In this document: piece after piece, positions 3,229 through 62,631 of the stretch | Position numbering within the stretch: position 1 is the stretch's first letter | Layout: every line of letters starts with the position of its first letter | Source: Candidatus Micrarchaeota archaeon | GTDB lineage: Archaea; Micrarchaeota; Micrarchaeia; Micrarchaeales; CABMGC01 | Length of the DNA stretch: 64,000 nt | Assembly (NCBI GenBank): GCA_021817125.1 | Contig: JAKAWC010000001.1 | Coordinates: forward strand, 12,327-76,326 | Direction: 5' to 3' | The notes under the pieces: generated by a model | What the model saw: the letters and a program-made list of their open reading frames with translations, nothing else | What the model was told of the DNA's origin: nothing | Databases searched by the model: none | Made by a program: the position numbers and the translations under genes

Positions 3229-3331
3229 TAGATTCACTTTTCGTACTGAGCGTCGTTTTCGTGATATCCTATTCCTCTTTATCCATTTAAATAGGTTTTG
3301 CGGAAAGCGTAGTCTCACTGTTTATAGCCCA

Positions 3332-27860: not shown

Positions 27861-27870
27861 GGAGGCGCTT

Positions 27871-29363: not shown

Positions 29364-29426
29364 TGGATTACCGGTTTTTATGCGACTTTTCCGTCGTTTT
29401 GGGCAATGTCCATTTCTTAAACAACG

Positions 29427-29435
29427 TTTTTAAAG
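29427..29435 (+). promoter_or_regulatory. A/T box TTTTTAAAG upstream of giant gene
   Basis: Centre is about 25 nt upstream of GTG 29456, which implies a leaderless or near-leaderless mRNA. Confidence 0.4.
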
Positions 29436-29455
29436 CAGGAAAATAGATTAAAAAC

Positions 29456-32400: not shown

Positions 32401-34921
32401 GAAGGAGATCATCGTAGAGTTAAGCGGGCAGAAGTTTAGTGATAAGCCCGCATCGATATTGCAAAAGATGAGAAACAACCCTAAATTCATAGCAAAGGGA
32501 GTAACTACAGCAGATGAAGCCCTTACTCTTGTTATCGGGTTGGCGGGGTTGGTGCACCTCTCGACAATACCCGTGGAGCAGCTGCTTGGCCCTCAGGGTG
32601 AGGATCTTGTCCTAGCTTTGAACGATGCCTACGTCAAGCTTGGGCACAGAAGGGGAATCAGAGTTATAGGGCAGCAGGACACAACCCGTGTTTCTTTCAG
32701 TCTGAACGGAGGCCATTATGAAGATAGCATGAACGCTCTTACGAAGAGAATGATAAAATTGCAAGGATTTAGAGAGAAAGGGGTGGTGTCTGATTCTAAA
32801 GCCATGGACTGGCTTGTCGCACTTGCGGGTAGGAAGATGGCCTCTGGCGTCGAGCCTTTTATTAGAGAAAGGAGGATGCCGCTACCAAGACCAGGGAAGC
32901 TTGATGTCTCGGACCTTCTTGGACCGAACGGCAAAGAGTTGGCAATGGCGATAGACAAAGCATTGGTTGACAACGGAATCCAAAAAGGGCTGGCCGGAGC
33001 TAGCACAGATTATCGCGAACCTATCTCGTTTGCATGCGATGGCGCCAAGTATGAAGACCACCTTAGAGATATCATCCGAAGGATCTTATTGCACCCTGCC
33101 TTTAAAAGCCAAGGTATTGATTCCTCCCTAGAGGCCAAGGTCTGGCTCGCGAAAATGGCCGGAAGAGATATCGAAAGGAGAGTCGCCGCTGTTCGCGGGC
33201 AACCTGGCGCGAAGCCGCCGGTTTCACCCCTTGTCAAAGAGATAAGGGATTCTGGCTTCGATTTTGAGAAGGTCGCCGCTCGAGAGCTTTTGAATGATCA
33301 AGATGCGATAAATAAGCTCTTGGCTGCAAGAGAGAGTAAGAACTATTTCACAGCTGAAGAGATAGGTTCAGAGAAGGCAGGAGAACTGCTAGCAGCATTG
33401 ACTTCAAGCAGAAAGTTGTTCAACTTTGGAGCGGTCTACAGTTTCGACCAGAGAAAGATACTATACCTTGTCAGGTTCAATAAGAGAACACGTGCAAAAG
33501 AGGGCAAGCCAAAAGAGCATATAAAACCAAGCTGGAACGGCAATAGGGAGTACTCGTATTCGGATCTGGAGGGAATCGAGTTCGGGGAGTTCAGAGAGCC
33601 CGGCACAAAACGTCGCAGGCGAAGCACGCCAAAGGCAGCGGTCTGGCAGAATCCAGCAGCAGAACGCCAGAAAGTAGAAGTTCCTGCCATAATTAAACTG
33701 GCGCTCAACAGGCCATTGAAGCCGACAGACCTTGAGGCTCTGCAAAAGGCGATGACGGTCCATGCATCAAGGGGAATCTTCAAGGCGCTGGAAGAGGGGA
33801 TAAAGAGCAAAGATGGTAAAGAGATAGAGAGACCTATACAAGGACCTGTTCTTGACGTGGGCTCCGGCCCGAGCACGGCACCAGTCGCAAAGGCCCTTAC
33901 TCTGCCGGTTACCTGTGTGGACCTGAAGAAAGAGAGAGTTGCTGGACTCAAGGAGAACAATCTAGGCTTGAATCACGTTGCTGCAGATGCGAGGTATCTT
34001 CCGTTTAAGACTGGCGCCTTTGGAACTACTACATGGAGCTATCTTCTGGACAGTAATTGGACCAGGGGAGGCGTCCTTCTCATGGCAATGGAGATGACAA
34101 GGGTTGGTAGAGAGTCCGTAATGGAGATGCATAGGTCATATACCGGAGGAGCCAGGGCGCTCGAGTACCTCATGGAGCTGTCCGGGATAGATTACCATGA
34201 TAGAGCACCTTTAGCCAGGTTTAATTGTAGTGTACGGAGCAAGTCTATACTCATAAGGGCGCAGAAGGCGAGAGAACCGTTTATCGATGCAGGAGTATTG
34301 ACAGAAGCAGCAAGGTTCGATGCTGACAAAGAGAAGGTGTATAAGATTGCTGTGGGCGTAGATGCCAACGAGTTAGTAAGGGCATGGCTCCTGATAAATG
34401 CAAACCCGAAGGATTATTTCAGCACGAAGAGAGTGGCGACTGAGAGTATATCAAGAGTCTTTAGTGTCACCAGCGGATCTGCCCTGGCAGATAGGACCAA
34501 GACGTTGGCCTCTTTGATGCTCTCTACTGGAGTGAGTGCAACTGTTCAGCCATTCGTTGTCGCACTTAGAGTCTCGGGAAAAGGGAAGAGGAATGGCAAT
34601 GGGAGCACACTGTTCTCTATCACCAAGTACAAGAGCAAAAGAAGATTTGGCGCATCTTTCATGTTGGATTCAGATGCGAGAACCGGCACTGAGGTCATCA
34701 GGCAGCTCAGAGCATCGCTGAATGCTCTTGGCGCTTCGTTCAGGGTCAAGAAATACAAAAACAGGGGCTGGTACGGCATAAGGGTAGACGACGTTTTAGT
34801 AACGGGACTCGAAGGCAGGGATGAGGAGAGCCTTGCGCGAGACTATGCATTCAGGCGTCTCTTAAGGAAAGCTGAGAAACGCGAGCTGTCAAGCTTCGCA
34901 CAGGCGCAAATGCGGGAATAG
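29456..34921 (+). CDS. Giant 1,821-aa protein: 12 divergent tandem ~95-aa modules + class I SAM methyltransferase domain + basic C-terminal region
   Basis: Uninterrupted ORF. Repeats start at residues 37, 142, 237, 343, 439, 534, 661, 756, 850, 943, 1038 and 1149. MTase motifs VLDVGSGPS, VTCVDL, ADARYLPF (residues ~1465-1530; nt ~33833-34135). No signal peptide or TM. Confidence 0.8.
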   Translation: MAFIRKPPTSGDPSVGLNTPAPNHAVGGEKTTYPTVPIEKLLGPEGEKIAKAIDQYYLGQGNELGILDVYTNSRYRIIIDLGEVRYEDSLASIVQRMRHSKDCAAKGITSLGAAKDFLAAKAGRAVPPHKNRKWAVRTHPKITTEELLQPELGQKLVDALDREYVALGLAGGLSEVSASDKRRVIIIVDGKAYEERMHLLSLRISKSDTFKEMGIEGIGTARDWLAKTAGREVYAQLQVDDILQEGIGQKFVLALDAALVAAGVENGLAGANKWTNDRLIFEVNGKKYADTISAIMQRCIHHSEAFRERGLTTGSKVLDFLARAANREPPRRRDTSRITRTHSPVDESLLLGETGERLAKLIDAECVKRGFTEGVSQVSVTDKGRMTFVLDGVTNEDSIQTIVSRAWRLESFRTAGYDSPRKIRDLIAKKAGRTIYPTLPLEVLLQEDRGKKLANAIEQGYIAAGIEGGIKGVNAHDPTLFLFEFEGVTYQDSMNRMVQRAQKFESFNAKGSLRASQLRRLMMEKVGKTSYDKVPAEVFLDPVLSPLFTDAINKALIDSGIPGGIAATSVSYAKPLEFSIGEKHYSDKFNLIVLRIYHCPAFSLLGVNTYKSAKEFLLKVAKGEAFVENQRAAVAGINPENVPNIPDHNPRANRRVGLNPLPIALLFGEEHGAVAMAIDEACVKAGSPDGLDMNLDDRRLLTITFKGMVYTDTFGLIVTHLAKSGRELPGDVNTFDKSRAKMLLMVLASRKPKKTLPIDSLLGDKRKDAVLAIDKACLELGIKDGVAGILAENRRKIKITLGDETFEDSTAGITDRMRAKPEFRKLGITRFAHARDWLIKEAGRDVYRILTVDILLGKDCERFVRAVDDCLIGFGIEGGIAEARTNVRKTFKFELDGEKYSDNFSALLQRMINSEDFQRLNVNKLTSARVWLASKIEKEVILPMPYEELLGENAGKVAEAFHDACLKAGITGGLQGASRSSQKEIIVELSGQKFSDKPASILQKMRNNPKFIAKGVTTADEALTLVIGLAGLVHLSTIPVEQLLGPQGEDLVLALNDAYVKLGHRRGIRVIGQQDTTRVSFSLNGGHYEDSMNALTKRMIKLQGFREKGVVSDSKAMDWLVALAGRKMASGVEPFIRERRMPLPRPGKLDVSDLLGPNGKELAMAIDKALVDNGIQKGLAGASTDYREPISFACDGAKYEDHLRDIIRRILLHPAFKSQGIDSSLEAKVWLAKMAGRDIERRVAAVRGQPGAKPPVSPLVKEIRDSGFDFEKVAARELLNDQDAINKLLAARESKNYFTAEEIGSEKAGELLAALTSSRKLFNFGAVYSFDQRKILYLVRFNKRTRAKEGKPKEHIKPSWNGNREYSYSDLEGIEFGEFREPGTKRRRRSTPKAAVWQNPAAERQKVEVPAIIKLALNRPLKPTDLEALQKAMTVHASRGIFKALEEGIKSKDGKEIERPIQGPVLDVGSGPSTAPVAKALTLPVTCVDLKKERVAGLKENNLGLNHVAADARYLPFKTGAFGTTTWSYLLDSNWTRGGVLLMAMEMTRVGRESVMEMHRSYTGGARALEYLMELSGIDYHDRAPLARFNCSVRSKSILIRAQKAREPFIDAGVLTEAARFDADKEKVYKIAVGVDANELVRAWLLINANPKDYFSTKRVATESISRVFSVTSGSALADRTKTLASLMLSTGVSATVQPFVVALRVSGKGKRNGNGSTLFSITKYKSKRRFGASFMLDSDARTGTEVIRQLRASLNALGASFRVKKYKNRGWYGIRVDDVLVTGLEGRDEESLARDYAFRRLLRKAEKRELSSFAQAQMRE
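29564..33175 (+). repeat. Coding tandem repeat: 12 divergent protein modules (period 93-127 aa)
   Basis: Consensus P-x-E-x-LLG-x2-G-x2-LA-x-AID-x-A-x-V-x2-GI-x2-GL-x-G ... F-x3-G-x2-Y-x-DS ... R-M ... F-x3-GI ... A-x-DWLA-x2-AGR, read in every copy. At DNA level only short identities are present (e.g. GGAATAGAAGGGGGCAT twice). Confidence 0.75.
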
Positions 34922-50402: not shown

Positions 50403-50446
50403 AAAACTATATTAGGGTTGATGGGGGATAGGATAGTCATCTTGAT

Positions 50447-50517
50447 GGAGGCATCGTCTAGTGGTAGGATAGCGCCTTTACACGGCGCGGGCCTGGGTTC
50501 GATTCCCTGTGCCTCCA
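50447..50517 (+). tRNA. tRNA-Val (anticodon UAC)
   Basis: Manual fold: acceptor GGAGGCA/TGCCTCC, D-loop AGTGGTA, anticodon stem GCGCC/GGCGC with loop TTTACAC, T-loop TTCGATT. One T-T mismatch in the T-stem. No encoded CCA. Confidence 0.8.
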
Positions 50518-50562
50518 TTTTTCTTCTCAGAGAGCTATATGTTACATTCCTAACCAGAAGTC

Positions 50563-50570: not shown

Positions 50571-50593
50571 CTTTGCCATGCATAGATAAAAGC

Positions 50594-51775
50594 ATGGATT
50601 GGGTTGAGGATCTCATATCTAAATCTCAAGTGAAGTTGTTTCCAACGCTTCATCCGCACACTTTAGACGCCGTAAACAGGTATGTTGCGAGCAGGAGGGC
50701 AAAGGGTGTAAACGAAAAGACCATACTCAGGGACCTTTACACGCTGAGGCTTTTCTCAGACGCCTTCGGAAAGAGGGACTACGCCAAGGCCACCAGGGAG
50801 GATCTCGAGGCGGCCCTCACGAAACTTGAGCAGGGCGGCAAGTCAGAGAGCACAAAGGAGAAGGTCAGGGTCACCATAAAGTCATTCTATAAGTATGCCA
50901 TGGGGAAGGACCTATTCTATCCCGAGCAGGTCGCTTGGATAAAGTCCGTGAGGAGGAAGATGCGCCATCTTCCGGACCTTCTCGAGGAGGAGGACATTGC
51001 CACGCTGCTGGGCGCCACGAAGAACCTCCGCGATAAGGCGATAATAGCTCTCCTGTTTGATTCCGGCATAAGGGCGGGGGAGCTCATAAACATGAAGGCA
51101 AAGGACGTCGACCTTGCCAAAGAGCCGGCTCACATCATCGTGGATGGCAAGACGGGAATGAGGCAGGTGCCTATCATGTTCTCTGTACCATACCTTGCCG
51201 ATTACCTGAACGCAGAGCGGAGGAAGCCTGGCGAGCACCTGTTTACACAGGAAGGCGTCTGGAAGGATAAGAACATGCCCATAGATAACCATGCCCTGGG
51301 CACCATGCTTAGAAAGGTGGCAAAGCGCGCAGGCATAGGCAAGCACGTGCACCCCCATTTATTCAGGCATAGCAGGGCAACCTATTACGCAAACAGGCTA
51401 ACGGAGCAGCAGCTCAAGGTCTTCTTCGGCTGGGTTGGAGACAGCAAGATGGCTAGCACGTATGTCCACCTCTCAGGAAGGGACATAGACAATGCCATTC
51501 TCCGGGCAAATGGATTTAAGACGCAGGAAGTTAAGATGGCACCAAAACTGGTAGCAAAGATATGTGCTAAGTGCAAAGCCTCAAACACGATGGAAGCGAT
51601 CTACTGCACCAGATGTGGAGCCCCCCTAGATATAAGCACGGCCATGAAAATGCAGGAGGCAGAAGTGAAGGTAAACGATGCGCTCCTAGAATCGATTAAA
51701 GACCCGAAGATAATAGAGGAGATAGTGCACGCTTATCTCATGCAGCAGAAGGAGAAGTCAAGAGCACGAGGTTAG
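50594..51775 (+). CDS. Tyrosine recombinase/integrase (XerC/D-like) with C-terminal zinc ribbon
   Basis: GIRAGELINMKAKDVD (Arg I), HPHLFRHSRATYYA (H-x-x-R), ASTYVHLSGRD (Tyr), then CAKCK...CTRCG. Confidence 0.85.
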   Translation: MDWVEDLISKSQVKLFPTLHPHTLDAVNRYVASRRAKGVNEKTILRDLYTLRLFSDAFGKRDYAKATREDLEAALTKLEQGGKSESTKEKVRVTIKSFYKYAMGKDLFYPEQVAWIKSVRRKMRHLPDLLEEEDIATLLGATKNLRDKAIIALLFDSGIRAGELINMKAKDVDLAKEPAHIIVDGKTGMRQVPIMFSVPYLADYLNAERRKPGEHLFTQEGVWKDKNMPIDNHALGTMLRKVAKRAGIGKHVHPHLFRHSRATYYANRLTEQQLKVFFGWVGDSKMASTYVHLSGRDIDNAILRANGFKTQEVKMAPKLVAKICAKCKASNTMEAIYCTRCGAPLDISTAMKMQEAEVKVNDALLESIKDPKIIEEIVHAYLMQQKEKSRARG

Positions 51776-51967: not shown

Positions 51968-52600
51968 ATGAGTAACAAGTTAATCGAATTGTTCGGTGAT
52001 AAACTTATCATAGCTAAAGTTAAGAAACGACTTCCACACTTATTTCAGCTTGCCGAGTTAGAGAGTTCTAGAGCGGGAAAGATAGGCATGGAGGTAGGTT
52101 CCGTAAGAGAAAAGATAATCAGTTCCCTTCTCATATATAAGTTTGGAGAAGAAAACGTCGAAACAGAACTGCCTATTACTGAACCAGAAGTGGACGTGAG
52201 GCTTTTCGGATCATCTATATCAATAAAAACAATAACTGGCAAAGAACCGGTAGGGGTTAAGCTTATTTGGACTGTCGATGCAGAAAAAGCGCGGCAATTC
52301 CTAGAAAGTTGGAAACCTAATTGTAATTTAATTTTAGTACAAGTTAATTGGAATGGAATCGGAGGAGTTTATTATATATCAACTGAAACGCAACTTCAAG
52401 TGTTCAGGAAGCTAGGACGTGAGAGGTATATCAAACTACCAAAGGCGGGTACGAACCCGAGAGGCGTTGAGATCTCTAAAGAAGCATTGAAGGCGTTAAT
52501 TGATGACAAGGACACAAAGGCTATTATAGTTGAGTGGAAAAAAGATAGTGTAGATTATAATCCATATAAGAGATGGGTTGATCTGTGGAAGGAGGATTAA
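51968..52600 (+). CDS. Putative type II restriction endonuclease (family not recognised)
   Basis: 210 aa, AT-rich, immediately upstream of the methylase (TAA then GTG). Candidate PD-(D/E)xK-like segment EPEVDVRLFGSSISIKT. Confidence 0.45.
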   Translation: MSNKLIELFGDKLIIAKVKKRLPHLFQLAELESSRAGKIGMEVGSVREKIISSLLIYKFGEENVETELPITEPEVDVRLFGSSISIKTITGKEPVGVKLIWTVDAEKARQFLESWKPNCNLILVQVNWNGIGGVYYISTETQLQVFRKLGRERYIKLPKAGTNPRGVEISKEALKALIDDKDTKAIIVEWKKDSVDYNPYKRWVDLWKED

Positions 52601-53545
52601 GTGTCTGACCAACCAAAGAAAAACGGCTCACAGACAAGTGCTTTCGGTAGTCCAAGCAGAGCTAATCACGATTCTTCTAAGTTTTATAGCGGCAGATTAT
52701 ACGAAGGCCTACCTAAGGCAAAAGAAGACGTTATTTTTGAAGAAAATAAGATACCTACAAACAGACTCAACAAGATATTCTGTTCATCAGCAGAGATTAT
52801 GAAAGAGTTGCCCGATAATAGCGTGCACCTGATGGTTACGTCACCACCTTATAATGTAGGTAAATTGTATGATAAAGAACTAACATTGGAGGAATACAGA
52901 GGATTCCTAACTAGAATTTGGAAGGAAGTTTATCGTGTTCTAGTTCCGGGTGGAAGAGCATGCATAAATGTTGCTAACTTAGGAAGGAAACCATATATAC
53001 CACTGCACACTTTTATAATAGAAGACATGCAAAAGCTAGGTTTCTTGATGAGAGGCGAAGTTATTTGGGAGAAAGGTGCTAGTGCGAGTTCTTCTATTGC
53101 ATGGGGCTCGTATTTGTCTGCTAAGAACCCTGTTTTAAGAGATGGACATGAATACATCCTGATATTCTCTAAAGAGTCATTTACGAGAGGTATAAAGGAA
53201 GAGATGAAATCTACAATAACAAAGGAGGAGTTCATAGAATATACAAAGAGCATCTGGTCTTTCAATGCCGAGTCTGCAACAAGGATAGGACATCCAGCAC
53301 CGTATCCAGTAGAATTGCCATCTAGATGTATTAAACTCTATACATTTGAGAATGAGGTCGTTTTAGATCCATTTATGGGAAGCGGAACAACTGCCGTTGC
53401 GGCGCTAATGCTCAGCAGGAAGTTTGTAGGTTATGACGTAGAGGAGAAGTACATCAAACTTGCCGAGAAGAGGATAGAATCGGTTAGAGACACGTCCAAG
53501 CAACAGAAAATTACTAAAGCGGAGATTTACGAGCAGCCACAATAA
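52601..53545 (+). CDS. DNA methyltransferase, beta-class (N4-cytosine or N6-adenine)
   Basis: Motif IV MVTSPPYNV precedes motif I DPFMGSGTTAVAA. 314 aa. Confidence 0.85.
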   Translation: MSDQPKKNGSQTSAFGSPSRANHDSSKFYSGRLYEGLPKAKEDVIFEENKIPTNRLNKIFCSSAEIMKELPDNSVHLMVTSPPYNVGKLYDKELTLEEYRGFLTRIWKEVYRVLVPGGRACINVANLGRKPYIPLHTFIIEDMQKLGFLMRGEVIWEKGASASSSIAWGSYLSAKNPVLRDGHEYILIFSKESFTRGIKEEMKSTITKEEFIEYTKSIWSFNAESATRIGHPAPYPVELPSRCIKLYTFENEVVLDPFMGSGTTAVAALMLSRKFVGYDVEEKYIKLAEKRIESVRDTSKQQKITKAEIYEQPQ

Positions 53546-53682: not shown

Positions 53683-54606
53683 TCACGGGTTTCGCGTCTT
53701 TTCTCCGGTCTTCTTCTGTCCGTTCTTGGCATTCTTCGGCCTTAGCACCGCCTCCAATAACTCAAGCTCGGCTTCGTCAGTCAGGTGGGCATCGATGTTT
53801 ATGTGCTTCTTTCCTGCCGAGTCGGCGATTATGCATCCTGGGCCGACAGCATCTTTTATCATCTTCTCAAGCTCGCCAAGAGCCTCGAAGTTTCTTGCGT
53901 CTAGCGCCGAGATGGCGAAGTGTAAAATCGGGATTAGCTTGCCCGCCTGCGCCATCGCAATCCTGCTCTCAATGCCGTAGAACGTGGCGTCGTATTCGGC
54001 GTGCTCTAAAAACGGATTCCGGATTGCGTCCGCCATTGCCTTGCCCCCCTGCTCTAGCCAGTCTGCGTAGAAATCGCTGTTGAGGTAGTAGCCCCTGCTG
54101 GCTCTTTTGTCGGCAAGTTCACGGGTCTCCACCACATGGACGTACGCACCGGCCAACCCGTCCAGCATCTTCTGCACGGTATATCCGCCTATGAGCAATG
54201 GCACCTTCCTTCGGTCCGGGAAAAGTGTATGGTATGCTATGCCGAGCGCCCTCTCGGCAGTGTCTCCGGCAAGGTTTCCAAGCCGATTCAGCATCTCAAG
54301 GAAAGCGTCTTCTCCGGGCAGCAATGCCGTTATTGCACGGAGGTCATCATCGGCAGTCTTCTCCGTCGCATTCATTGCAGTCACCAACTTGCCGAGCGTG
54401 CTAAAAAGGCGCATGTTTGCTATCAGGTTCTCGAGCACCTTGTTTATGTACCTATCCTTTATCCTGTCGACAACCATCACCCCGCCCTTCTCCCCTAATA
54501 TGCTTATAATCACTTTTTCCCTGTCCAGGAGCGCGCTCTTCAGCCTGCCGGGATTCTCCTTCAACAGCTTTAGTCCGTCTATCCTGCCGCTTTCTGCATT
54601 AGCCAT
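53683..54606 (-). CDS. Hypothetical protein (island-encoded, 307 aa)
   Basis: Long ORF with ordinary composition. No motif recognised. Divergent from the NYN gene across an AT-rich spacer. Confidence 0.55.
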   Translation of the reverse strand: MANAESGRIDGLKLLKENPGRLKSALLDREKVIISILGEKGGVMVVDRIKDRYINKVLENLIANMRLFSTLGKLVTAMNATEKTADDDLRAITALLPGEDAFLEMLNRLGNLAGDTAERALGIAYHTLFPDRRKVPLLIGGYTVQKMLDGLAGAYVHVVETRELADKRASRGYYLNSDFYADWLEQGGKAMADAIRNPFLEHAEYDATFYGIESRIAMAQAGKLIPILHFAISALDARNFEALGELEKMIKDAVGPGCIIADSAGKKHINIDAHLTDEAELELLEAVLRPKNAKNGQKKTGEKTRNP

Positions 54607-54762
54607 AGGTATGCACTAGATGGGTATGTTACAATAAGTATTTAAATCTTTCAATTTATCATCATTTATACTAAAGTAAACATATTTTCACCAATAGCTT
54701 TATAAATATCCATTATTATATATTATAATTAGTTACGGTATAATAAAATAAATGGTGGAAAT

Positions 54763-55410
54763 ATGAAAAACACAATCGTGTACATAGACGGGGGATACGT
54801 CGCGAAGGTCGCCGAGCACCTGAGGGACAAGACGGGCGCGAAGATGAGCCTGGTCGATACCGTGCGCAACCTTGCGGAATCGCAGGGGCTCAACTGCACC
54901 AAGGCGTACTACTACGACGCGCCTCCGATGGCGGGCATGGTGCCGATCGGCTTCAGGGACGTCGTGCGGTTCGAGAGGTACAAGAGGCTCGTGCGCAGGC
55001 TCGAGCGCGCCGGGAACTTCGTGGTCAGGGAGGGGAGGGTCCAGCGGATAAACGGGTCGTACAGGCAGAAGGGCGTGGACGCCCTCGTAATCATGGACCT
55101 GCTCGAAGAGCCTTTCGCGGAGGAGGGCGTGGACACCATAATCATCCTCGCCGGGGACACCGACTTCGTGCCGGTCCTCCAGAGGCTCAGGGAGAAGGGC
55201 ATAAAGGTCATCCTGGCCTGCTACCCTCCACAGCCGGACACTACGAGGTTCGGGGTATCGGACTACATGCTCGGCGCATGCGACAAGCTTGTCCTGCTCA
55301 AGTATGACGCAACGGAGAAGGAGGGTCCGGCAAAAGAGACTCCGGTCAAGGCCATGCTGGTCAGGAGGATGCAGTCAGAGCTGTTCGGCGGCGTCCAAAT
55401 CCTCCGGTGA
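54763..55410 (+). CDS. NYN-domain (LabA/DUF88-like) putative ribonuclease
   Basis: IVYIDGGYV, KGVDALVIMD, LAGDTDFVPVLQRLREKGIKVIL acidic motifs. Confidence 0.75.
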   Translation: MKNTIVYIDGGYVAKVAEHLRDKTGAKMSLVDTVRNLAESQGLNCTKAYYYDAPPMAGMVPIGFRDVVRFERYKRLVRRLERAGNFVVREGRVQRINGSYRQKGVDALVIMDLLEEPFAEEGVDTIIILAGDTDFVPVLQRLREKGIKVILACYPPQPDTTRFGVSDYMLGACDKLVLLKYDATEKEGPAKETPVKAMLVRRMQSELFGGVQILR

Positions 55411-55499
55411 GGGGGATAAATGCACAGGTGTCCACAAATCCATAGCACTTTAAGGATATATTGAAGTAAATGAAATTTATCTGCGTAAAAGATGATTGG

Positions 55500-55646
55500 A
55501 TGAAAAAGCTCGAGAAACCGATGCTTGTCCTGCTCAGCCGCGACCTGTCAGAGTGGCTCGAGCAGAAGGCACAGCAGGGGTACAAGAAGGGCTCGCTCGT
55601 CAGGCACATCCTTGAGAAATACAAGGAGGCTGAGAGCGGCTCTTAG
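55500..55646 (+). CDS. Small ribbon-helix-helix-like protein (not in ORF track, 48 aa)
   Basis: Translation MKKLEKPMLVLLSRDLSEWLEQKAQQGYKKGSLVRHILEKYKEAESGS. TAG overlaps the next GTG by 1 nt. Confidence 0.45.
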   Translation: MKKLEKPMLVLLSRDLSEWLEQKAQQGYKKGSLVRHILEKYKEAESGS

Positions 55647-55846
55647 TGAAGCCGGAAACGGCATCTGGGGGTACTATGGGGGATGAAGGACGCGAAGAGA
55701 GAGTGAAAGCGTACTCAGAGGCGATTGCACAGTTCTTCGAGCATTCTGAGCTTCTTGGGAGTGATGCGCGAAGGGCTTTCGTGCTCCACATAAAAGAGCT
55801 CGTGGAGAGGGAGATGAAGATGAAACAAAAACAACTATCGCTGTGA
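55646..55846 (+). CDS. Small hypothetical protein
   Basis: 66 aa, helical/charged. Coupled between the RHH-like ORF and the ATPase. ATG 55676 is an alternative start. Confidence 0.35.
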   Translation: MKPETASGGTMGDEGREERVKAYSEAIAQFFEHSELLGSDARRAFVLHIKELVEREMKMKQKQLSL

Positions 55847-55850
55847 TTTT

Positions 55851-58010
55851 ATGGCAATGATGATTGAGACTTCCGTGGGGAGCGCCGTGGGTTCGCTGAG
55901 GGCAAGGATAGACGGGGATTCCCGGCTGAAGACGAGGGCGAAGGTCGCTCTGGGCATGCTCGGCTCTGCGGTCGTGATATTGTACTTCAACGCCGTCGCG
56001 CTGTCCGTCTTCTATGGCGTGTTCGGGAGCACGGCGTTATTGGCAGCCGCCCTGGTTCTCGGCAACGCCCTGCTGGTCAGGAGCGCGAAGAAAAGGCACG
56101 AGAAGGCCGCCAAGCCGAGGCCAAAGAAGGGCGAGATCTACATCGGAAGGTCTTACGCGCACAGCACCGAGATATACGGCAACGTAAGGGAGAGGACCAT
56201 CGGAGGCTCGGCTGCGGGAGGCCGCTCCTCGCTGAAAGCTGTGGAGGTGGGCACCGATGGCGACCATTACATAGACTACCTGAACGAGCCGAACCCGCAC
56301 GTCCTCATGCTGGGAAGCACGTCGAGCGGCAAGACCACGACGATGCGCACCTTCGTCTCAAGGGCTGCGCTCCAGGACAAGGTAAACTTCCTTGCCATTG
56401 ACTGGAACGGCGAGTCGGAGGAGTGGGCGAGGATGACCAACGCCACGTTCTGGAAGGTGCCGGAGAACCTGAAGGTCAACCCGTTCCTGCTGAACGGTCT
56501 CTCAAAAGAGGCGAGGGCGAGCGTGGCTACCGAGAACTTCGTAGTGGCGGCGCACCTGACGCCACTCCAGTCGACGAAGCTGAAGAGCTCGCTTCTCGGC
56601 TTCTACCTCAACGGCAAGGAGCCCAGCCTCTTTGAGCTGTGGCAGGTTCTCTGTGCGAGGGAGAAGAACGACCTCATTGGCCACAGGATGCGCGCGATAC
56701 AGCGCGTCATAGGCACGGAGCCTGACGGCTTCTGGGAGCGCGTCATGTCCGGGAACAATATCATAAGCCTTGCCGGCCTGAACGAGAGCGAGAAGTCGCT
56801 GGTCGCCTACGCGCTCCTCCAAAGGCTGACCGAGGTCTTTGAGAAGAGCCCTGACATGAACGGCAGACTCAGGCTCATGGTGGTCCTCGACGAGGCGTGG
56901 CAGTTCCTGACAGGGGAGCGGCGCGAGTTCGGCATAGAGACGCACCAGGAGTCCATAGTGGAGAAGATAATTCGCCTTGGAAGGAAGTACGGGTTCGGGA
57001 TGGTCATCTCCACCCAGCAGGTCGAGGACCTGCCCAACGTCTTCATAAACTCCAGCGCGCTGGTCATGCTCCACTACTACCGCAACGTCGGGCTCTACAA
57101 CAAGAAGAAGTTCGACCTGACGCCCTTCGAGCTCGCCTACGTCCGCTCCGCGGCGCAGGGGGAGATGCTCCTCTTCGACAGGGCTATGAACCACAGGGGC
57201 AAGTGGCACTCCGAATACATCAAGGTCGCGCCGCTGACGGAGAAGGAGGCCGCCCAGCTTGCCAACCTGCAGAAGCTCTTCGTTCCGCCGAAGATAGACG
57301 AGCCTGAGATGCCCATCGAGGAGTACCATAACGGCAGGCCTGTGACCAACAGGGTCACTGTGAAGGCGTACAGGGCGGCATTCCCTATTCCCGTGGGCGC
57401 GCCCACGCCGGCGATGCATGCCGCCATGCTGGGCATCCAGAATAGCAGGAGCAAGACGATGTCACAGATAATAGGCTACATAAGGTCGCGGGGCTGGCTA
57501 ACCAGCTACTCCACGCTCTACGGCTCAAACGGAAGCAAGCCAGGCATCCTGGACACGCTCATAAAGGCGGGCTTCGCCCAGAAGGATGGCGAGCACTACT
57601 CCCTGACCGAGAAGGGCCTCGGCTGGGTCGACCCCATGCGCATCCTGATGAACCAGTCGGAGCGCCTCGGGTCGGAGGAGCACAGGCTCCTGCTTGTAAG
57701 GACGACAGAGCTCCTGCACGAGAATAATACTCTTGTACTGACGACAAGGGAGAAGCACTCGTTCGACCTGCTCTCCTACCCCGTCCACGAGAAGAAGAAG
57801 TGGATCTGGGACCAGAAAGGCATAAAGGGATACGAGGCCCAGACCAGCGCGAGGAAGGACTCCGTGGACGAGAACAAGGGCAAGGCGGAGAGATGGAAGA
57901 TACCCTTGGTCTGGATAGCGAACGATTCTAGCATCTTGGAAGCGATAAAGGGGCTCACGAATAACACGAACGAATATATGCTGATAACTGATAATATGGT
58001 ACGACCATGA
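55851..58010 (+). CDS. Membrane-anchored HerA/FtsK-superfamily ATPase with C-terminal winged-helix and nuclease-like region
   Basis: Two N-terminal TM helices. Walker A GSTSSGKTT, AIDWNGE, Walker B MVVLDEAWQF, LGRKYGFGMVISTQQ. The C-terminus has DGEHYSLTEKGLGWV (wHTH-like) and an E...D...EAQ segment. Confidence 0.75.
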   Translation: MAMMIETSVGSAVGSLRARIDGDSRLKTRAKVALGMLGSAVVILYFNAVALSVFYGVFGSTALLAAALVLGNALLVRSAKKRHEKAAKPRPKKGEIYIGRSYAHSTEIYGNVRERTIGGSAAGGRSSLKAVEVGTDGDHYIDYLNEPNPHVLMLGSTSSGKTTTMRTFVSRAALQDKVNFLAIDWNGESEEWARMTNATFWKVPENLKVNPFLLNGLSKEARASVATENFVVAAHLTPLQSTKLKSSLLGFYLNGKEPSLFELWQVLCAREKNDLIGHRMRAIQRVIGTEPDGFWERVMSGNNIISLAGLNESEKSLVAYALLQRLTEVFEKSPDMNGRLRLMVVLDEAWQFLTGERREFGIETHQESIVEKIIRLGRKYGFGMVISTQQVEDLPNVFINSSALVMLHYYRNVGLYNKKKFDLTPFELAYVRSAAQGEMLLFDRAMNHRGKWHSEYIKVAPLTEKEAAQLANLQKLFVPPKIDEPEMPIEEYHNGRPVTNRVTVKAYRAAFPIPVGAPTPAMHAAMLGIQNSRSKTMSQIIGYIRSRGWLTSYSTLYGSNGSKPGILDTLIKAGFAQKDGEHYSLTEKGLGWVDPMRILMNQSERLGSEEHRLLLVRTTELLHENNTLVLTTREKHSFDLLSYPVHEKKKWIWDQKGIKGYEAQTSARKDSVDENKGKAERWKIPLVWIANDSSILEAIKGLTNNTNEYMLITDNMVRP

Positions 58011-58249
58011 AGAAGGCTGTGCTTGGGCGTCCGATGTACGAGGCCCTCAAGGCGGCGCTCAAGGAGGCATCCAAGAGGAACGATGCGGAGAATCCCATGT
58101 CAATAGAGTCGTTCTTCGAGAGGATGGAGAAACTCACGCTGAAGAAGCTCGGCGCGAGGGCGAGGAGGCTACTGCTCGGCAAACTCCGGGAGAGAGATTA
58201 TCTTGTAGAATACAAGGAGGGAAAGGCGTGGAGGCAGAGTAGGTTATAA
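58007..58249 (+). CDS. Small hypothetical protein (possible wHTH)
   Basis: 80 aa. ATG overlaps the ATPase stop (ATGA 58007-58010). Confidence 0.45.
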   Translation: MKKAVLGRPMYEALKAALKEASKRNDAENPMSIESFFERMEKLTLKKLGARARRLLLGKLRERDYLVEYKEGKAWRQSRL

Positions 58250-58279: not shown

Positions 58280-59023
58280 CTATCTCCTTTTGAGGAAGAA
58301 ATAAAGCAGGAATATAAAGCCACTTGATAGATGTGTAGGGAAGCTGTTTCCTACAATGAACGAGCCTATGGCAAATATTATCGTAGTGACCGTTGCCAAC
58401 GCATAAAATCCTTGCATGATGCAGCCAGCCCTCCAAAAGGCTTCTTTAGGGTTTATTTTTCTTCCGACCAAGGCGTTTAATCGTGTGACAAACGCTACGA
58501 GCTTGCTTGTTCCTGCTTTTTTAGATGATTTACGAAAAGCGTCCCAGTCTATGATGAGACCCATCATCATAAAGAGCATCATGTCAAAGCCGATAAGTGA
58601 CGTCCCGGCGCCAAGTTTACCTAAATAAACGTAATCCATCATGGAAAGGAGGTAAGTGGAGAATACGGCTACAGCTATCGCACTTTTAAAAGATAGGTAT
58701 TTTTTAAATCGCTGCTCAAAAGCTAGCGAGTATAGGATGGCAAAAAACAGCATGATTGCCACTGCGCCATCATTTGCATCAATTCCCTGTGCGATTGAAG
58801 TATAGCTTTTCGACAGATTCTCACAGTAATTTATAGGAGACGTTATGAAGATGCCAATTAATGTAGAGTTGGTACATGCGGTGTTTGATCCGTAAAAACT
58901 GATGTAAGCTAGATTAGCACCTTCGTAGAGCAACACGAAAATCAAGCTACCTATTGCTGCTAAAACAGCACTCAATAGGATTTTGTGTTCAAAAACTTGC
59001 AACAAAAACTGTTTTGCATCCAT
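58280..59023 (-). CDS. Polytopic membrane protein (AT-rich, island)
   Basis: 247 aa, about 7 hydrophobic helices. No motif recognised. Confidence 0.55.
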   Translation of the reverse strand: MDAKQFLLQVFEHKILLSAVLAAIGSLIFVLLYEGANLAYISFYGSNTACTNSTLIGIFITSPINYCENLSKSYTSIAQGIDANDGAVAIMLFFAILYSLAFEQRFKKYLSFKSAIAVAVFSTYLLSMMDYVYLGKLGAGTSLIGFDMMLFMMMGLIIDWDAFRKSSKKAGTSKLVAFVTRLNALVGRKINPKEAFWRAGCIMQGFYALATVTTIIFAIGSFIVGNSFPTHLSSGFIFLLYFFLKRR

Positions 59024-59105
59024 TACTATAACCTGTAGTCTCGCGGTTTAATAATAGATTGTGCGTTTGCATTAACAGGCGTGAATGCGACATTTTGCAC
59101 TTTGT

Positions 59106-59267
59106 TCAACCATGTCTATAGTATAAGAGTGCTCCTAGTAAAAATATAATGCCTATCACGATTACGACAGAACCTGCAAAGGTTTCTTTATTGATTAATG
59201 CGTCGGCACCTACCAGTATGAATACGCCTCCGGTTAATAGGTATTCAATTGGTGTCCTCGTTTTCAT
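59106..59267 (-). CDS. Small 2-TM membrane protein (not in ORF track, 53 aa)
   Basis: Translation MKTRTPIEYLLTGGVFILVGADALINKETFAGSVVIVIGIIFLLGALLYYRHG. ATG overlaps the upstream stop (ATGA 59264-59267). Confidence 0.45.
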   Translation of the reverse strand: MKTRTPIEYLLTGGVFILVGADALINKETFAGSVVIVIGIIFLLGALLYYRHG

Positions 59268-59656
59268 CGTGTTCGCCTGCCGGCGCGAGCCCTACGTCGT
59301 TTTATATGTGACTTTCCTCTTTTAATAATTCTTCCCCATAAATCCTTATCCAAGTCTATATCTAATGCATCAAGACTTTTTGAGACTGCACCGTATCCGC
59401 CCGTCAAAAGAACGAGCGCGGTCGTGTCGGGGTCGATTGGAAGTGTTGCTGTATTCAATACGCCAAGAGCTATCACCCCCGCTACTATCAATAGCGCACT
59501 CAGAATCAACCATGCATTGATTAAAGCAGTGAGGAAGTCAATCTTCTTTTTCATAAAGAATTTAAGAACTATCCAGAGGACTACGGCCAGCAAGAAGGCA
59601 CCGACGATAAAGTACCCAAACGACGGCTGTTGACTTGACGACAATTGAATGCTCAC
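59264..59656 (-). CDS. Membrane protein (3 TM) with basic C-terminal tail
   Basis: 130 aa. GTG start. Hydrophobic helices, then KRGKSHIKRRRARAGRRTR. Confidence 0.5.
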   Translation of the reverse strand: MSIQLSSSQQPSFGYFIVGAFLLAVVLWIVLKFFMKKKIDFLTALINAWLILSALLIVAGVIALGVLNTATLPIDPDTTALVLLTGGYGAVSKSLDALDIDLDKDLWGRIIKRGKSHIKRRRARAGRRTR

Positions 59657-59657
59657 G

Positions 59658-59801
59658 TTAACGCCTCTGCCTTCCTTTCAAGAGAGAGCCGATTATTGCG
59701 CCGATAATGCCGCCTGCCACTACACCTTCCTCACCGCCAACTAGCCCCCCAAGCAGCGCACCTAAGATTAACCCAAGTGCAGTTTCATCGTCGCTCGCCA
59801 T
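59658..59801 (-). CDS. Glycine-zipper mini membrane protein (not in ORF track, 47 aa)
   Basis: Translation MASDDETALGLILGALLGGLVGGEEGVVAGGIIGAIIGSLLKGRQRR. A/T box AGGTATATAAATG (59821-59833) lies 20-32 nt upstream. Confidence 0.4.
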   Translation of the reverse strand: MASDDETALGLILGALLGGLVGGEEGVVAGGIIGAIIGSLLKGRQRR

Positions 59802-60234
59802 GCTTATGAACTATCGGTTTAGGTATATAAATGTTCGGCGAGTGAGGTCCTGGCGAGCGAGGCCGCCGCCGAGCCTCGACGAAGGAGAGGCGAGAACGGC
59901 CGAGCGAGCCAATGCTTCTTTAGCCTCCGCCTAGAGCTGCAAGGAGCTCAGGCCGGCGCTATTGCTGTTGGTGTAGCTGTTGCTGGAGCCGGTGCTGATT
60001 TTGGTGCTATTGCCGGTGCTGTTAGTGGTGTTGGTGTTTGGGCTTGGCTCGGTGCAAGCTGGGCAGGCCCACAGCCAGGCTCGCTCGTCGCCTCCGCCAT
60101 CGGCTCCTCGCTCGCTTGCGGGCACAGAACTCAAATTGGAACGAAGCTTTAAATACGACTTTTATCTAATCTCCAGCATGCCTCCAAAGGGAAAAAAGGG
60201 ACCAAGTTGGCCCAAGAAGCAGATAGACACATAT

Positions 60235-60810
60235 GAATAACCCCACCCCAAGGGGTGGGGTATCTGGGTTGCATCACAACTCAATGGATTTTGAATAATT
60301 TGAGTTGTTTGTAACCATCCTTTTCTTCTTCTGATCCTTGTTTCAATATGTAATTTCTGACGACATTTGCAGTTGTTCCTTCGCCAACAGTTCCGATGTA
60401 ACCACCATCACTCCAGAATTCACCGCCCCACAAATTCCTTTTTATTTCAGGGAACTTGGTAAATAGTTCTCTTGCAGTAATACTTTTCACTATTCTGAAT
60501 ATTTCTGATGGCGAATACTTAGGCGCAGACTCAACAAATAGATGGACATGATCACCATCTGTTCCCACGGTTTCGAACCGTATATCATATCGTCTTTCAA
60601 CTTCTGATAGAACATATCTGAGAAATGAAATTCTATCTTCATGAAGCAATAATTTCTTCCTGTATTTCACACAGATTACGATATGATACCTAATCCAATA
60701 GACCTTGTGTGCTGCATGCGCGATAGTCATACACTTTATTCTGCAACAGGATGTTTATTAGTAACTGTTGCACAGCGCATCCCCACCGCAAGCAGTGGGG
60801 AATTCAAGCA
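60235..60810 (-). mobile_element. IS200-type element (tnpA only); ends approximate
   Basis: tnpA is flanked by hairpins CCCCACCCC-AA-GGGGTGGGG (60241-60260) and CCCCAC-CGCAAGCA-GTGGGG (60781-60800). Confidence 0.65.
60281..60730 (-). CDS. tnpA: IS200/IS605-family Y1 (HUH) transposase TnpA
   Basis: YHIVICVKYRKKLL, HUH motif DHVHLFV, catalytic Tyr region SDGGYIGTVG. 149 aa. Confidence 0.9.
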   Translation of the reverse strand: MTIAHAAHKVYWIRYHIVICVKYRKKLLLHEDRISFLRYVLSEVERRYDIRFETVGTDGDHVHLFVESAPKYSPSEIFRIVKSITARELFTKFPEIKRNLWGGEFWSDGGYIGTVGEGTTANVVRNYILKQGSEEEKDGYKQLKLFKIH

Positions 60811-61012
60811 TTAAAGAGGGAGCATACGAAAGCGAGATCGCTTTAGTTGAGACACCTAAAGGCGACGAGGCGCTACAGATAACTACCTCAAGAAAAGTCA
60901 CTGCTGACTATACGAAATACCATCATGGGCTATGGATGCCAAGGCGATTGTTCGGCAAATGGGTAGTATGGCTATAGCAGCCCAATGAAGTGATACAACT
61001 TCCTCTACTTCC

Positions 61013-62121
61013 GCTTTTCCGAAAGAATATTATCTGTTTCCATCCAACATGTTTCGACGACCATGTTGGAAAGCGACTCCAACACTCTTGGCGACCTGTA
61101 CAAGAACTGCAAGGATGCAAAGGAAAAGATACGGTATGAGGCACTGTATGCGGTAAGTAGGGGCAACGATATCAAGACTGTTGCAGATATTATTGCGGTT
61201 GAGGAATCAACAGTGTACGATTGGGTACACCAGTGGGAAGCAGAACGGACGGTTTCGGATAAACCGCGTAGCGGCAGACCGCCAAAACTAACAAAAGAAG
61301 ACGACAAAGAGATAAAGCAGCTTATCGACGAAAACGATCCGAAGAAATACGGGATTAACGCGTCTTCGTATACTACGGCGGAGCTGCAGGAATATTTCCT
61401 GCGCTTCCGTGGCAAACATATTGCTGAGGAGACGTTCAGAGTGCATCTCAAAGGGATGGGTGCAAGATATGTAAAGGCGGTATTGAGATATAAAGAAGCA
61501 GATGAAGGGAGACAGATTGAATTTGCGCTGAATTTCTCACATGTAGCGTCCAATTACGGATTTACAAAAATCCTGTTTATCGACGAAATGTCCGTATCGA
61601 CCTCTGCGCACAACGGCTATGGATGGACATTCGATGAACGACTCGTTGTGGATGCACCGCAGCGCAACAAGGTGAAGGCGAATTACTTCGGTGCAGTAGA
61701 AGTCATTGACGGAGAGGTCGTAGAGATTGTAAGGAAAAGCGCAAAGGTCGACTCATTCATTGCGTTGCTGAAGAAGATGAATGAAAGATATGCCGATGAC
61801 AAAATGCTTATTTTGATGGACAACAGCCAGGTGCATCATGCGAGAAAGGTCGCCGAATTCTTCCGTAAACAAGAGAGGATGAAACTTATGTTCCTGCCGC
61901 CATATTCGCCGGATATCAATCCAGAGGAGTATTTCCATAACCACTTGAGGAATAAGGTGCTGAACAACCACAACTTCAGAAGTACGAAACAGATCGGTCG
62001 TGCGATAAGTCGATTCGTGAAGAGACTAAGTCCAGAAACGATCAGGAGTATTGCGACACTGTTGCCGATAGAGGCACTTTTATCAGCACAAAAAGAGTTG
62101 TGAGACTTTCAAGGAAAGCTA
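61013..62121 (+). mobile_element. IS630-family insertion sequence; ends approximate
   Basis: Imperfect inverted termini GCTTTTCCGAAAG (61013-) versus the reverse complement of CTTTCAAGGAAAGC (-62119). The right end abuts TATA and truncates an integrase reading frame. Confidence 0.5.
61063..62103 (+). CDS. IS630-family DDE transposase
   Basis: N-terminal HTHs with SGRPPKL. DDE triad contexts ILFIDEMS, ILMDNSQVHHA, YSPDINPEEYFHNHLR. 346 aa. Confidence 0.9.
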   Translation: MLESDSNTLGDLYKNCKDAKEKIRYEALYAVSRGNDIKTVADIIAVEESTVYDWVHQWEAERTVSDKPRSGRPPKLTKEDDKEIKQLIDENDPKKYGINASSYTTAELQEYFLRFRGKHIAEETFRVHLKGMGARYVKAVLRYKEADEGRQIEFALNFSHVASNYGFTKILFIDEMSVSTSAHNGYGWTFDERLVVDAPQRNKVKANYFGAVEVIDGEVVEIVRKSAKVDSFIALLKKMNERYADDKMLILMDNSQVHHARKVAEFFRKQERMKLMFLPPYSPDINPEEYFHNHLRNKVLNNHNFRSTKQIGRAISRFVKRLSPETIRSIATLLPIEALLSAQKEL

Positions 62122-62563
62122 TAATCGTGAGTTCTCGCTTGTCGAAGTCGATGTTGCTTATGTGCAACTGGCAGACCTCGCCAACTCGAAGACCCATGTG
62201 CGCCTGATACTTGAACAGAAGCGCGAACTTCTCGCTTGCGATGCTTCTAAAGAAGCGTTGCAGTTCTGGCTCCGTAAAACCCTTGTTTATCGAGCCGTAT
62301 CTAGGCTCTTTCCTTCTTTTGAAACGCTGGGCGTACGCCTTGACCATCACAGACCGCGCAGCCTCAAGCTGCCACTTGGAGGCCATTCTGCTCGCTTCTT
62401 CTACGCTGCTTAGGAAGTCCTTGAAAACGAACCCCGAACCCGCGTTTTCAGCCTTCCCGCCTGATGTCCTGCCTCTGGTTTTGAACCCGGAGCCATAGAC
62501 GCTAGATTTGAATGGGGCTGCCGAGATTTGAACTCGGGTATCTGTCATTGCAGTAGCGGGCAT
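62122..62563 (-). pseudogene. Tyrosine integrase N-terminal fragment reading through tRNA 3'-half remnants, truncated by IS630
   Basis: The ORF 62042..62563 product contains FTEPELQRFFRSIASEKFALLFKYQAHMGLRVGEVCQLHISNIDFDKRELTI (core-binding end plus the Arg-I box). Homology stops at the IS630 end. The first 30 codons are the tRNA-like sequence. Confidence 0.6.
62513..62556 (-). other. Orphan tRNA 3' half (anticodon loop to discriminator; Cys-GCA-like), candidate att remnant
   Basis: Minus strand reads CTGCAAT-GACAG-...-CCGAG-TTCAAAT-CTCGG-CAGCCCC-A. No matching 5' half is adjacent. A second, degenerate T-arm remnant lies at 62471-62494. Confidence 0.55.
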
Positions 62564-62631
62564 GACGGGATTTGAACCCGCAACCCTCGGGTCCGAAGCC
62601 CGATGCGCTATCCAAGTTACGCCACATGCCC
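62557..62631 (-). tRNA. tRNA-Arg (anticodon UCG)
   Basis: Manual fold: acceptor GGGCATG/CATGCCC, D-stem GCGT/GCGC, anticodon stem TCGGG/CCCGA with loop CTTCGGA, T-arm GCGGG-TTCAAAT-CCCGT, discriminator G. 75 nt. Confidence 0.85.

Follow-up and report, generated by a model that had tools for sequence, protein, structure and literature searches.

A membrane-anchored ATPase with a predicted winged-helix and nuclease-like tail as candidate DNA-transfer motor of integrative elements in Candidatus Micrarchaeota

The stretch of DNA considered here, referred to as the window throughout this paper, comprises 64,000 nucleotides of a Candidatus Micrarchaeota archaeon (GenBank assembly GCA_021817125.1, contig JAKAWC010000001.1, positions 12,327 to 76,326). 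At positions 54763-58249 it carries five plus-strand open reading frames (ORFs), the longest of which encodes a membrane-anchored protein of 719 residues, here called the ATPase. We propose, with a probability of about 0.5, that this protein is the ATPase by which a new family of integrative elements in archaea transfers its DNA. The kind of protein is known, a conjugation-type ATPase; what appears to be new, judged from structure models, is its tail, a predicted DNA-recognition and nuclease-like module that had previously not been noted. An earlier note, made from the sequence alone, had left the choice between a plasmid transfer or segregation machine and a defence module. Transfer is now favoured, because integrases and varying cargo accompany the gene and because its C-terminal module recurs on coupling-protein ATPases, and defence fits less well. 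The block corresponds to no conjugation or defence system described so far, and its matches in PADLOC and NCBIfam go no further than a general likeness of the ATPase domain. In the literature searched, the coverage of which was incomplete, no description of the ATPase family or of nuclease-fused archaeal coupling proteins was found.

The ATPase motor and its C-terminal module

A search of 5.8 billion proteins returned 77 relatives of the ATPase, nearly all of about 700 residues, aligned end to end and unnamed. When one genome per species was scanned, 29 loci were found, almost all in metagenome-assembled genomes (MAGs) of Candidatus Micrarchaeota, the exceptions being one distant copy in Bathyarchaeota and two Thermoproteus proteins of ~20% identity. 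A metagenome scan added 17 loci, and the NCBI record of one relative (P0042) names a Marsarchaeota MAG. The family was absent from the phage collection, only remote matches to DptH/FtsK domains were obtained in the plasmid collection, and IMG/VR yielded two remote matches on viral contigs and no close relatives.

The ATPase was modelled with AlphaFold 2 (AF2) from an alignment of 36 sequences (predicted local distance difference test, pLDDT, 84). Two long N-terminal helices (residues 25-58 and 61-87), a small beta-rich domain, a RecA-like core and a C-terminal region follow one another in the model. Hydrophobic windows begin at residues 30 and 51, and two such windows were present in 28 of the 36 homologues. 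G155, G160, K161 and T162 of Walker A, D347 of Walker B, and Q389 are invariant in all 36, and the protein scores above the Pfam cutoffs of AAA_10 (31.8 vs 27.5 bits), FtsK_SpoIIIE (28.6 vs 24) and DUF87 (29.1 vs 23.2). The Walker A and B motifs, the polar sensor, and the Pfam and structure matches place it in the FtsK/HerA superfamily. The two N-terminal transmembrane (TM) helices and HerA-type core described in the earlier note agree with hydropathy, model and invariant Walker residues.

Based on Foldseek comparison with the PDB, the closest structures were the C-terminal domain of DndH/DptH (7es4, E 2.8e-15, TMt 0.74) and VirB4 (4ag5, TMt 0.73), and HerA (TMt ~0.48) and TrwB ranked below them. 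Among the curated families, the DNA-import ATPase CedB came first (NCBIfam, 9e-18), followed by VirB4 (1.5e-9) and CedD (1.9e-8). The ATPase domain alone aligned in these comparisons, and the scores for CedB (64.2 bits vs a cutoff of 700) and VirB4_CagE (36.7 vs 643) do not make the protein a member of either family. Nor is it a member of the type IV coupling proteins (T4CPs), as TrwB_AAD_bind reached E 0.073 and 12.4 bits (cutoff 20.5) and no TraG-D_C match was obtained. The structure and family matches therefore put the motor in the VirB4/CedB/DptH neighbourhood of the FtsK-HerA superfamily and in no curated family. T4CPs (VirD4/TraG/TrwB, and the P0190 family described below) resemble the ATPase in that a HerA/FtsK-superfamily motor comes after a pair of TM helices at the N-terminus. 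Unlike them, the ATPase stays below the T4CP Pfam thresholds, has a motor of another clade, and is without a linked VirB4 partner or genes of a type IV secretion system (T4SS).

The C-terminus is confidently modelled as a winged helix followed by a restriction-endonuclease-fold domain, which is predicted to be nuclease-like. Residues 508-719 were modelled alone with 22 homologues, giving a pLDDT of 93.6 and a predicted template modelling score (pTM) of 0.90. In this model, helices and a beta-hairpin wing form the winged helix-turn-helix (wHTH) at residues ~520-593, and matches to HTH_45 and wHTH-PRTase_assc were obtained for 5-7 of the 22 members. Residues ~605-712 take up the alpha-beta-beta-beta-alpha-beta topology of the PD-(D/E)xK core fold, with H611 on the first helix, D639 at the start of beta-2, and E662-x-Q664-T665 in beta-3; these residues are conserved in 35-36 of 36 homologues. 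The earlier note had pointed to a winged-helix segment and, with low confidence, to a PD-(D/E)xK-like tail, and had made its proposal depend on them. Both folds are seen in the structure prediction, and model quality, topology and conservation lend them support.

FokI was the sole significant PDB match to the C-terminus (Foldseek E 5e-4, probability 0.97), Ecl18kI came next, and several viral proteins of the 'restriction endonuclease' type were matched in BFVD. In FokI, winged helices serve recognition and a PD-(D/E)xK domain serves cleavage, a combination of folds also predicted for the ATPase tail; FokI-type superposition on the tail is poor globally (root-mean-square deviation 14 Å), because the domains are arranged differently. 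With FokI and the enzymes of BglII/BamHI type the tail has the fold in common, and the motifs match (D...ExQ in the ATPase, PD...ExE in its T4CP relatives), but no sequence similarity is detectable.

The same module was found on coupling-protein ATPases. A profile of the module, searched against 1.84 billion representatives, retrieved 126 proteins, nearly all of which were members of the ATPase's own family or fragments. The remote exceptions were mainly long T4CP-like ATPases, which bear an N-terminal DUF8128 and whose ATPase part exceeds the Pfam thresholds of coupling proteins (TrwB_AAD_bind, 52 vs 20.5 bits; TraG-D_C; T4SS-DNA_transf). Among them, the P0190 family occurs in Nitrososphaerales under the NCBI label 'type IV secretory system conjugative DNA transfer family protein', and one of its members adjoins an integrase on a 6.4-kb contig. 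When the module was compared with P0190 by hhalign (probability 96.5%, E 8.7e-10), the H, PD and ExE of P0190 aligned to H611, D639 and E662-x-Q664. The C-terminal wHTH and H/PD/ExE module of the Nitrososphaerales DUF8128-T4CP proteins is homologous to that of the ATPase, and the hhalign and Pfam results together indicate that one wHTH-nuclease module has been joined to two conjugation-type motors in two archaeal phyla. Near the P-loop of P0207 (1386 residues), a T4CP-like protein with this module, an intein that includes a LAGLIDADG homing endonuclease is inserted.

The same architecture could serve maintenance instead of transfer. The ATPase would then be an FtsK-like segregation or dimer-resolution motor that works with the tyrosine recombinase, the ATPase of a partition pair with a ribbon-helix-helix (RHH) protein, a replication helicase, or the packaging ATPase of an unrecognised provirus. 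In FtsK, too, a motor stands between a membrane anchor at the N-terminus and a winged helix at the C-terminus, and the ATPase matches FtsK_SpoIIIE with the 28.6 bits given above. Some partition systems use RHH proteins as centromere binders. For HerA-like ATPases of archaeal 'dark matter' islands, a role as viral DNA pumps has been suggested (PMC4158269). Nevertheless, neither a capsid gene nor another viral hallmark was found, and the phage collection contains no member of the family, with the two remote IMG/VR matches only. The membrane anchor speaks against a replicative helicase, and partition ATPases are of the ParA type, not of the HerA/FtsK type. We know of no role for a fused nuclease in FtsK or partition mechanisms, and maintenance is considered the least probable of the explanations discussed here.

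The probable integrative element, its conserved genes and its cargo

The chromosomal context of the window includes an A-type ATP synthase operon, a diphthamide synthase gene and a gene for an archaeal threonyl-tRNA synthetase. After tRNA-Val there follow, in this order, a tyrosine integrase gene (starting 55 nucleotides past the tRNA), a ThaI restriction-modification (R-M) cassette, a divergent gene for a 307-residue protein, and the operon with the ATPase. The integrase gene and the divergent gene, which lie outside the coordinates given in the earlier note, belong to the same element. Homologues of the integrase (44-49% identity) stand beside the ATPase in five other loci (L007, L009, L018, L020 and L026). 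One of these, L020, comes from a Micrarchaeota MAG in which the ATP synthase and diphthamide synthase genes are 51-79% identical to those of the window at the amino acid level, and in which a homologous integrase and a truncated ATPase copy follow these genes at the same chromosomal position. The tRNA-Val site is therefore a recurrent target, since L020 carries a related, decayed element there. The genes shared with L020 agree with a Micrarchaeal host.

The GC content of the integrase gene, the 307-residue gene and the operon is 51-61% (59% on the ATPase side), that of the R-M cassette 39-40%, and that of the TM-protein genes beyond 58280 39-45%. A cassette of such low GC in an element of 51-61% suggests recent insertion of cargo. 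To the right of the element lie an IS200 transposase (60281-60730), an IS630-type transposase (61063-62103), and a truncated integrase (62042-62563, minus strand) that abuts tRNA-Arg (62556-62631, minus strand). Together with four small low-GC TM-protein genes, they give 58280-62631 the appearance of what is left, after decay, of a second element that had inserted head-to-head relative to the first. With this remnant on its right, the first element most likely spans ~50.5-58.25 kb, as an integrative mobile element at tRNA-Val whose backbone operon is formed by the genes at 54763-58249; its family appears to be undescribed in Micrarchaeota. Rfam found two tRNAs in the window and nothing else. 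The sole candidate for attR, a 13/14-nucleotide match to the 3' end of tRNA-Val inside a gene, was judged to be chance.

The TM-protein genes bear on a further explanation, namely that the ATPase is part of a larger Ced/Ted- or T4SS-like import or export apparatus, whose channel and pilin genes would either adjoin it (tm247 together with those of the small 2-TM proteins, 58280-59801) or lie in another part of the genome. CedB, CedD and TedB share with the window ATPase a layout of TM segment, short N-terminal domain and VirB4/HerA-like ATPase (PMC11868833). Both CedB, as the best curated family, and CedD matched the ATPase, a 4-TM protein and three small proteins with 1-2 TM helices are encoded directly downstream and are superficially like CedA, CedA1 and CedA2, and a separate T4CP/TraD-like ATPase is encoded at 1483-3318. 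However, the downstream TM genes have no homologues in any of ~60 related loci, differ in GC (39-45% vs 59%) and lie on the opposite strand; not being conserved, they were rejected as a Ced-like channel and assigned to the neighbouring remnant at tRNA-Arg, to which they probably belong. The 64 bits for CedB are far under the equivalog cutoff of 700. In contrast to the window ATPase, Ced proteins lack a tail of wHTH or nuclease type and function together with CedA, CedA1 and CedA2, and the Ced/Ted systems are chromosomal and crenarchaeal, whereas the ATPase resides on integrase-bearing islands. Such an apparatus is therefore regarded as very unlikely.

All ORFs of the ~60 related loci, almost all of them from Micrarchaeota, were compared by sequence. 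The recurring core consists of an RHH-like gene, a gene for a 66-residue protein and the gene of the ~700-residue ATPase, and an integrase and a divergent probable regulator are often found with them (integrase in 7 loci, the divergent 307-residue gene in 7). The RHH-like gene was found upstream of the ATPase in ~21 loci. Its family alignment shows a beta-strand, a helix, a G-Y turn and a second helix, with W19, L20, K23, G27, Y28, K30 and R35 invariant, and its profile matches are weak (viral regulator AvtR, 4hv0, E 0.07; RHH_1, E 0.026 in 1 of 11 members). RHH proteins are classical accessory factors of the relaxosome and dock on T4CPs. The 66-residue gene, present in ~19 loci and always directly before the ATPase start, encodes a protein of no known family in Pfam, PADLOC or NCBIfam. 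A second gene call on the same contig (L001) lists the 48-residue and 80-residue ORFs and not this one, which is nevertheless conserved in the ~19 loci. The five genes, presented in the earlier note as one unit with the RHH-like and 66-residue ORFs as minor parts, thus have to be regrouped: these two small genes are the conserved partners of the ATPase, and the NYN gene and the 80-residue ORF are not part of the conserved core.

The 307-residue protein had no match in Pfam, NCBIfam or the PDB, and one member of its family weakly matches the Cdc6_C winged helix. An AbrB-like gene occupies the same divergent position in 5 loci; family F22, considered as a relative of the 307-residue protein, was rejected on comparison and is AbrB-like by motif only. 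In a distant ATPase clade of 35-40% identity (L005/L006/L021, L013, L014, L016, L017 and L052), some ATPases are followed by a conserved gene of ~138 residues and others are preceded by MarR-like genes; in this clade the partner set has been swapped and the C-terminal module retained.

The first gene of the operon encodes, as the earlier note had read it, a LabA-type NYN protein with an intact acidic set: PF01936 is matched with 39.6 bits against a cutoff of 24.2, and IDGGY, GVDALVIMD and GDTDF all keep their D residues. It is linked to the ATPase in the window and in one other element only (L002), in which the ATPase is 61% identical to that of the window and the order is RHH-NYN-66aa-ATPase, compared with NYN-RHH-66aa-ATPase in the window. 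The closest NYN homologues (P0079, P0080 and P0083; 41-46% identity) are solitary chromosomal genes among housekeeping genes. A functional pairing of the NYN protein with the ATPase, which the earlier note had entertained, is accordingly not borne out. In about seven other elements a DUF6166 gene, whose product has a conserved W-G-Y-x-G-x-G-P motif, lies between the RHH-like and 66-residue genes (DUF6166 loci: L003, L004, L008, L018, L045, L050, L051 and L061), and in the rest this interval is empty; DUF6166 as a divergent NYN domain was rejected (hhalign probability 0.4%). The interval looks like a variable accessory slot of the operon. The NYN gene itself appears from this comparison to be an accessory gene of the sub-lineage, with a role that could be in RNA processing, as a toxin or in anti-defence. 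For the 80-residue ORF, neither a homologue in any related locus nor a family match in Pfam, PADLOC or NCBIfam was found, and an unrelated gene of ~138 residues takes its position elsewhere.

The cargo beside the ATPase differs between elements. ThaI R-M is found in the window, and elsewhere an MmeI-type R-M system with integrase and IS630, or GmrSD with MmeI and a TFIIB-like gene. In two metagenome contigs, L062 (1-12234) and L063, a copper-resistance set lies between integrase and ATPase (P-type ATPase, HMBD, YHS, PadR and cupredoxin-like or copper-binding proteins), from which it follows that adaptive cargo is moved by the family where habitats are rich in metals. Many copies of the ATPase are truncated or broken by frameshifts (L018, L020, L025, L026, L027 and L032), and several MAGs have two copies, some on different contigs, which is consistent with repeated acquisition and decay. 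Changing cargo and the double and decayed copies together make the ATPase look like a backbone gene of a mobile element, not like part of a fixed multi-gene defence system.

A defence role was nevertheless considered, in which a membrane-bound HerA/DptH-like ATPase would translocate on or sense foreign DNA and the fused domain would cut it, with the NYN protein as second effector and the RHH protein as regulator. The best PADLOC matches of the ATPase are indeed the mad8 (1.9e-16), HerA and DndH models, its best structure match is the DndH C-domain 7es4, the fusion of an ATPase to a nuclease is typical of defence proteins, the gene often has R-M and GmrSD genes beside it, and the NYN protein matches PADLOC NYN (4.9e-6) and HEC-09. 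These matches are at the domain level and far under the family cutoffs (HerA_antiphage 19-22 bits vs 800-850). In the PADLOC comparison, which the earlier note had called for, matches were confined to the ATPase domain and, in part, the NYN protein; the other proteins gave none, and no full system was recovered. MADS is an operon of eight genes (bioRxiv 10.1101/2023.03.30.534895), and the window locus is without other mad genes, without adjacent DptF, DptG or Dnd modification genes, and without the partners of Sir2/HerA-type systems. The likeness to DptH/DndH and mad8 is restricted to the ATPase domain, DptH being longer than 1300 residues and of another architecture. In addition, the ATPase is constant while the adjoining defence genes vary or are replaced by copper resistance, it is linked to integrases and often pseudogenised, its C-terminal module is common to conjugative coupling-protein ATPases, and the NYN protein is not a conserved partner. 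A new defence module is thus an unlikely explanation.

Features of the element and other regions of the window

The features are listed in Table 1. The five ORFs, the couplings and the peptide motifs given in the earlier note were all found in the sequence: the TAG at 55644-55646 shares its G with the GTG at 55646-55648, and the ATPase stop and the start of the 80-residue ORF overlap as ATGA at 58007-58010.

Table 1. Coordinates in the window of the element and of the genes of the ATPase operon
Feature	Position	Strand	Evidence
tRNA-Val (TAC), probable integration target and left element boundary	50446-50518	+	ARAGORN, Rfam
Tyrosine integrase, 400 aa, C-terminal zinc ribbon	50573-51775	+	Pfam Phage_integrase 3.9e-21
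ThaI-type restriction endonuclease and N4/N6 DNA methyltransferase, cargo	51968-53545	+	Pfam ThaI 9e-107, N6_N4_Mtase 2.6e-48
307-aa protein, wHTH-like segments, probably regulates the element or binds DNA	53683-54606	-	Homologues in 7 loci
AT-rich divergent intergenic region, probable promoters/operators	54607-54762	.	Sequence, AT-rich inverted repeats
LabA-type NYN domain protein, 215 aa	54763-55410	+	PF01936 39.6 bits
RHH-like protein, 48 aa (58 aa from alternative start 55470)	55500-55646	+	Alignment pattern, ~21 loci
66-aa helical mini-protein, GTG start	55646-55846	+	~19 loci
ATPase, 719 aa, membrane-anchored, VirB4/CedB-like, predicted C-terminal wHTH and restriction-endonuclease-like domain	55851-58010	+	77 homologues, AF2
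ATPase, codons for two N-terminal TM helices, residues ~30-80	55938-56090	+	Hydropathy, model
ATPase, P-loop core, residues ~128-480: GSTSSGKTT (Walker A), VVLDEAW (Walker B), STQQ	56232-57290	+	Pfam, invariant residues
ATPase, predicted winged helix-turn-helix, residues ~520-593	57408-57629	+	AF2, profile matches
ATPase, predicted PD-(D/E)xK-like domain, residues ~605-712 (H611, D639, E662-x-Q664-T665)	57663-57986	+	AF2, conservation, Foldseek
80-aa ORF, lineage-specific, overlaps ATPase stop	58007-58249	+	ORF only; no homologue in related loci

Two other regions of the window were noticed. At 1483-3318 (minus strand) a 611-residue ATPase belonging to the FtsK/HerA superfamily is encoded, which is TraD/T4CP-like and has DUF87, TrwB_AAD_bind and TraD-like matches. 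That the window holds a second HerA-like ATPase which is not a duplicate had been stated before and is confirmed, as this protein shares the P-loop alone with the 719-residue ATPase. Its neighbours are the genes at 27-1549, 3332-3793 and 4756-5958 (all minus strand), an IS630 fragment and a TnpB/Cas12f-like gene adjoin, and the region could be another mobile-element remnant with a coupling-protein-like ATPase. At 27072-34921 (plus strand) a block of genes encodes a PAPS-reductase-domain protein, an EF-Tu-like GTPase and a 1821-residue protein with a weak methyltransferase match only; its GC is lower (46-51%) and its GC/AT skew strongly positive, and the block may represent either an island of its own or some uncharacterised system.

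A proposed DNA-transfer function and its meaning

Beyond the presence and conservation of the domains, every step of the transfer mechanism is what we infer. The integrase would excise the element. The ATPase, presumably an oligomeric membrane ring like others of its superfamily, would recognise a site in cis through its winged helix, and the RHH-like and 66-residue proteins may act as its accessory or regulatory factors. The nuclease-like domain would nick or cut the element DNA, which the motor would pump across the membrane into a contacting cell. The outcome would be a one-protein transfer apparatus, comparable to Streptomyces TraB or to a coupling protein that includes its own relaxase substitute.

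Several observations weigh against a transfer function. No VirB6/CedA-like channel or pilin family is conserved with the ATPase across the ~60 loci in the sequence comparison, which structural homologues could escape. No attR copy of the tRNA-Val 3' end was found, so that the right boundary is drawn from the GC shift and the loss of conservation; no circular or extrachromosomal contig was detected among 60 loci by the terminal-repeat test, and no replication protein was identified in the element. The distant ATPase clade does without the RHH and 66-residue genes. The canonical lysine of PD-(D/E)xK is replaced by Gln in the ATPase family and by Glu in the T4CP relatives; lysine-replaced motifs are also present in active enzymes, ExQ in BglII and ExE in BamHI. 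The top structure match (DptH/DndH) and the top PADLOC match (mad8) are defence proteins, and the frequent R-M neighbours also fit a defence island.

The nearest parallel to the proposed transfer is provided by Streptomyces TraB, a single FtsK-like protein that binds clt and alone suffices to transfer double-stranded DNA for the integrase-bearing actinomycete integrative and conjugative elements (AICEs) (PMC3429521). The window ATPase is likewise a single motor of the FtsK/HerA superfamily with a predicted membrane anchor and a predicted C-terminal winged helix, and the window element, like the AICEs, is small, bears a tyrosine integrase and lies at a tRNA gene. Unlike TraB, the ATPase has a VirB4/CedB/DptH-like core, an extra predicted restriction-endonuclease-fold domain and a DPANN host. 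Its only sequence match to the Streptomyces plasmid FtsK-domain proteins is 34% over 76 residues, and neither a clt-like repeat array nor a Rep gene was identified in the window element.

No relaxase can be recognised in archaeal conjugative plasmids and integrative and conjugative elements, and it is an open question by what means their DNA is prepared for transfer (PMC9905601). As a more tentative proposal, possible rather than probable, the wHTH-nuclease module may supply this missing relaxase-like function of archaeal conjugation, fused to a VirB4/CedB-like motor in Micrarchaeota and to a VirD4-like motor in Nitrososphaerales. One protein, helped by the RHH and 66-residue proteins, would then recognise and cut the element and export it from one DPANN cell to another, or between a symbiont and its host. 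A predicted nuclease fold with a winged helix on two clades of conjugation-type motors, in two phyla, offers a concrete and testable candidate for the missing relaxase step.

DPANN episymbionts live in obligatory contact with other cells, and little is known of their mobile elements, to which the apparently new family adds. In communities of acid mines and soils the elements carry genes for R-M, GmrSD and copper resistance, and, if the ATPase does transfer DNA, they may have a way to move between cells without the usual conjugation enzymes.

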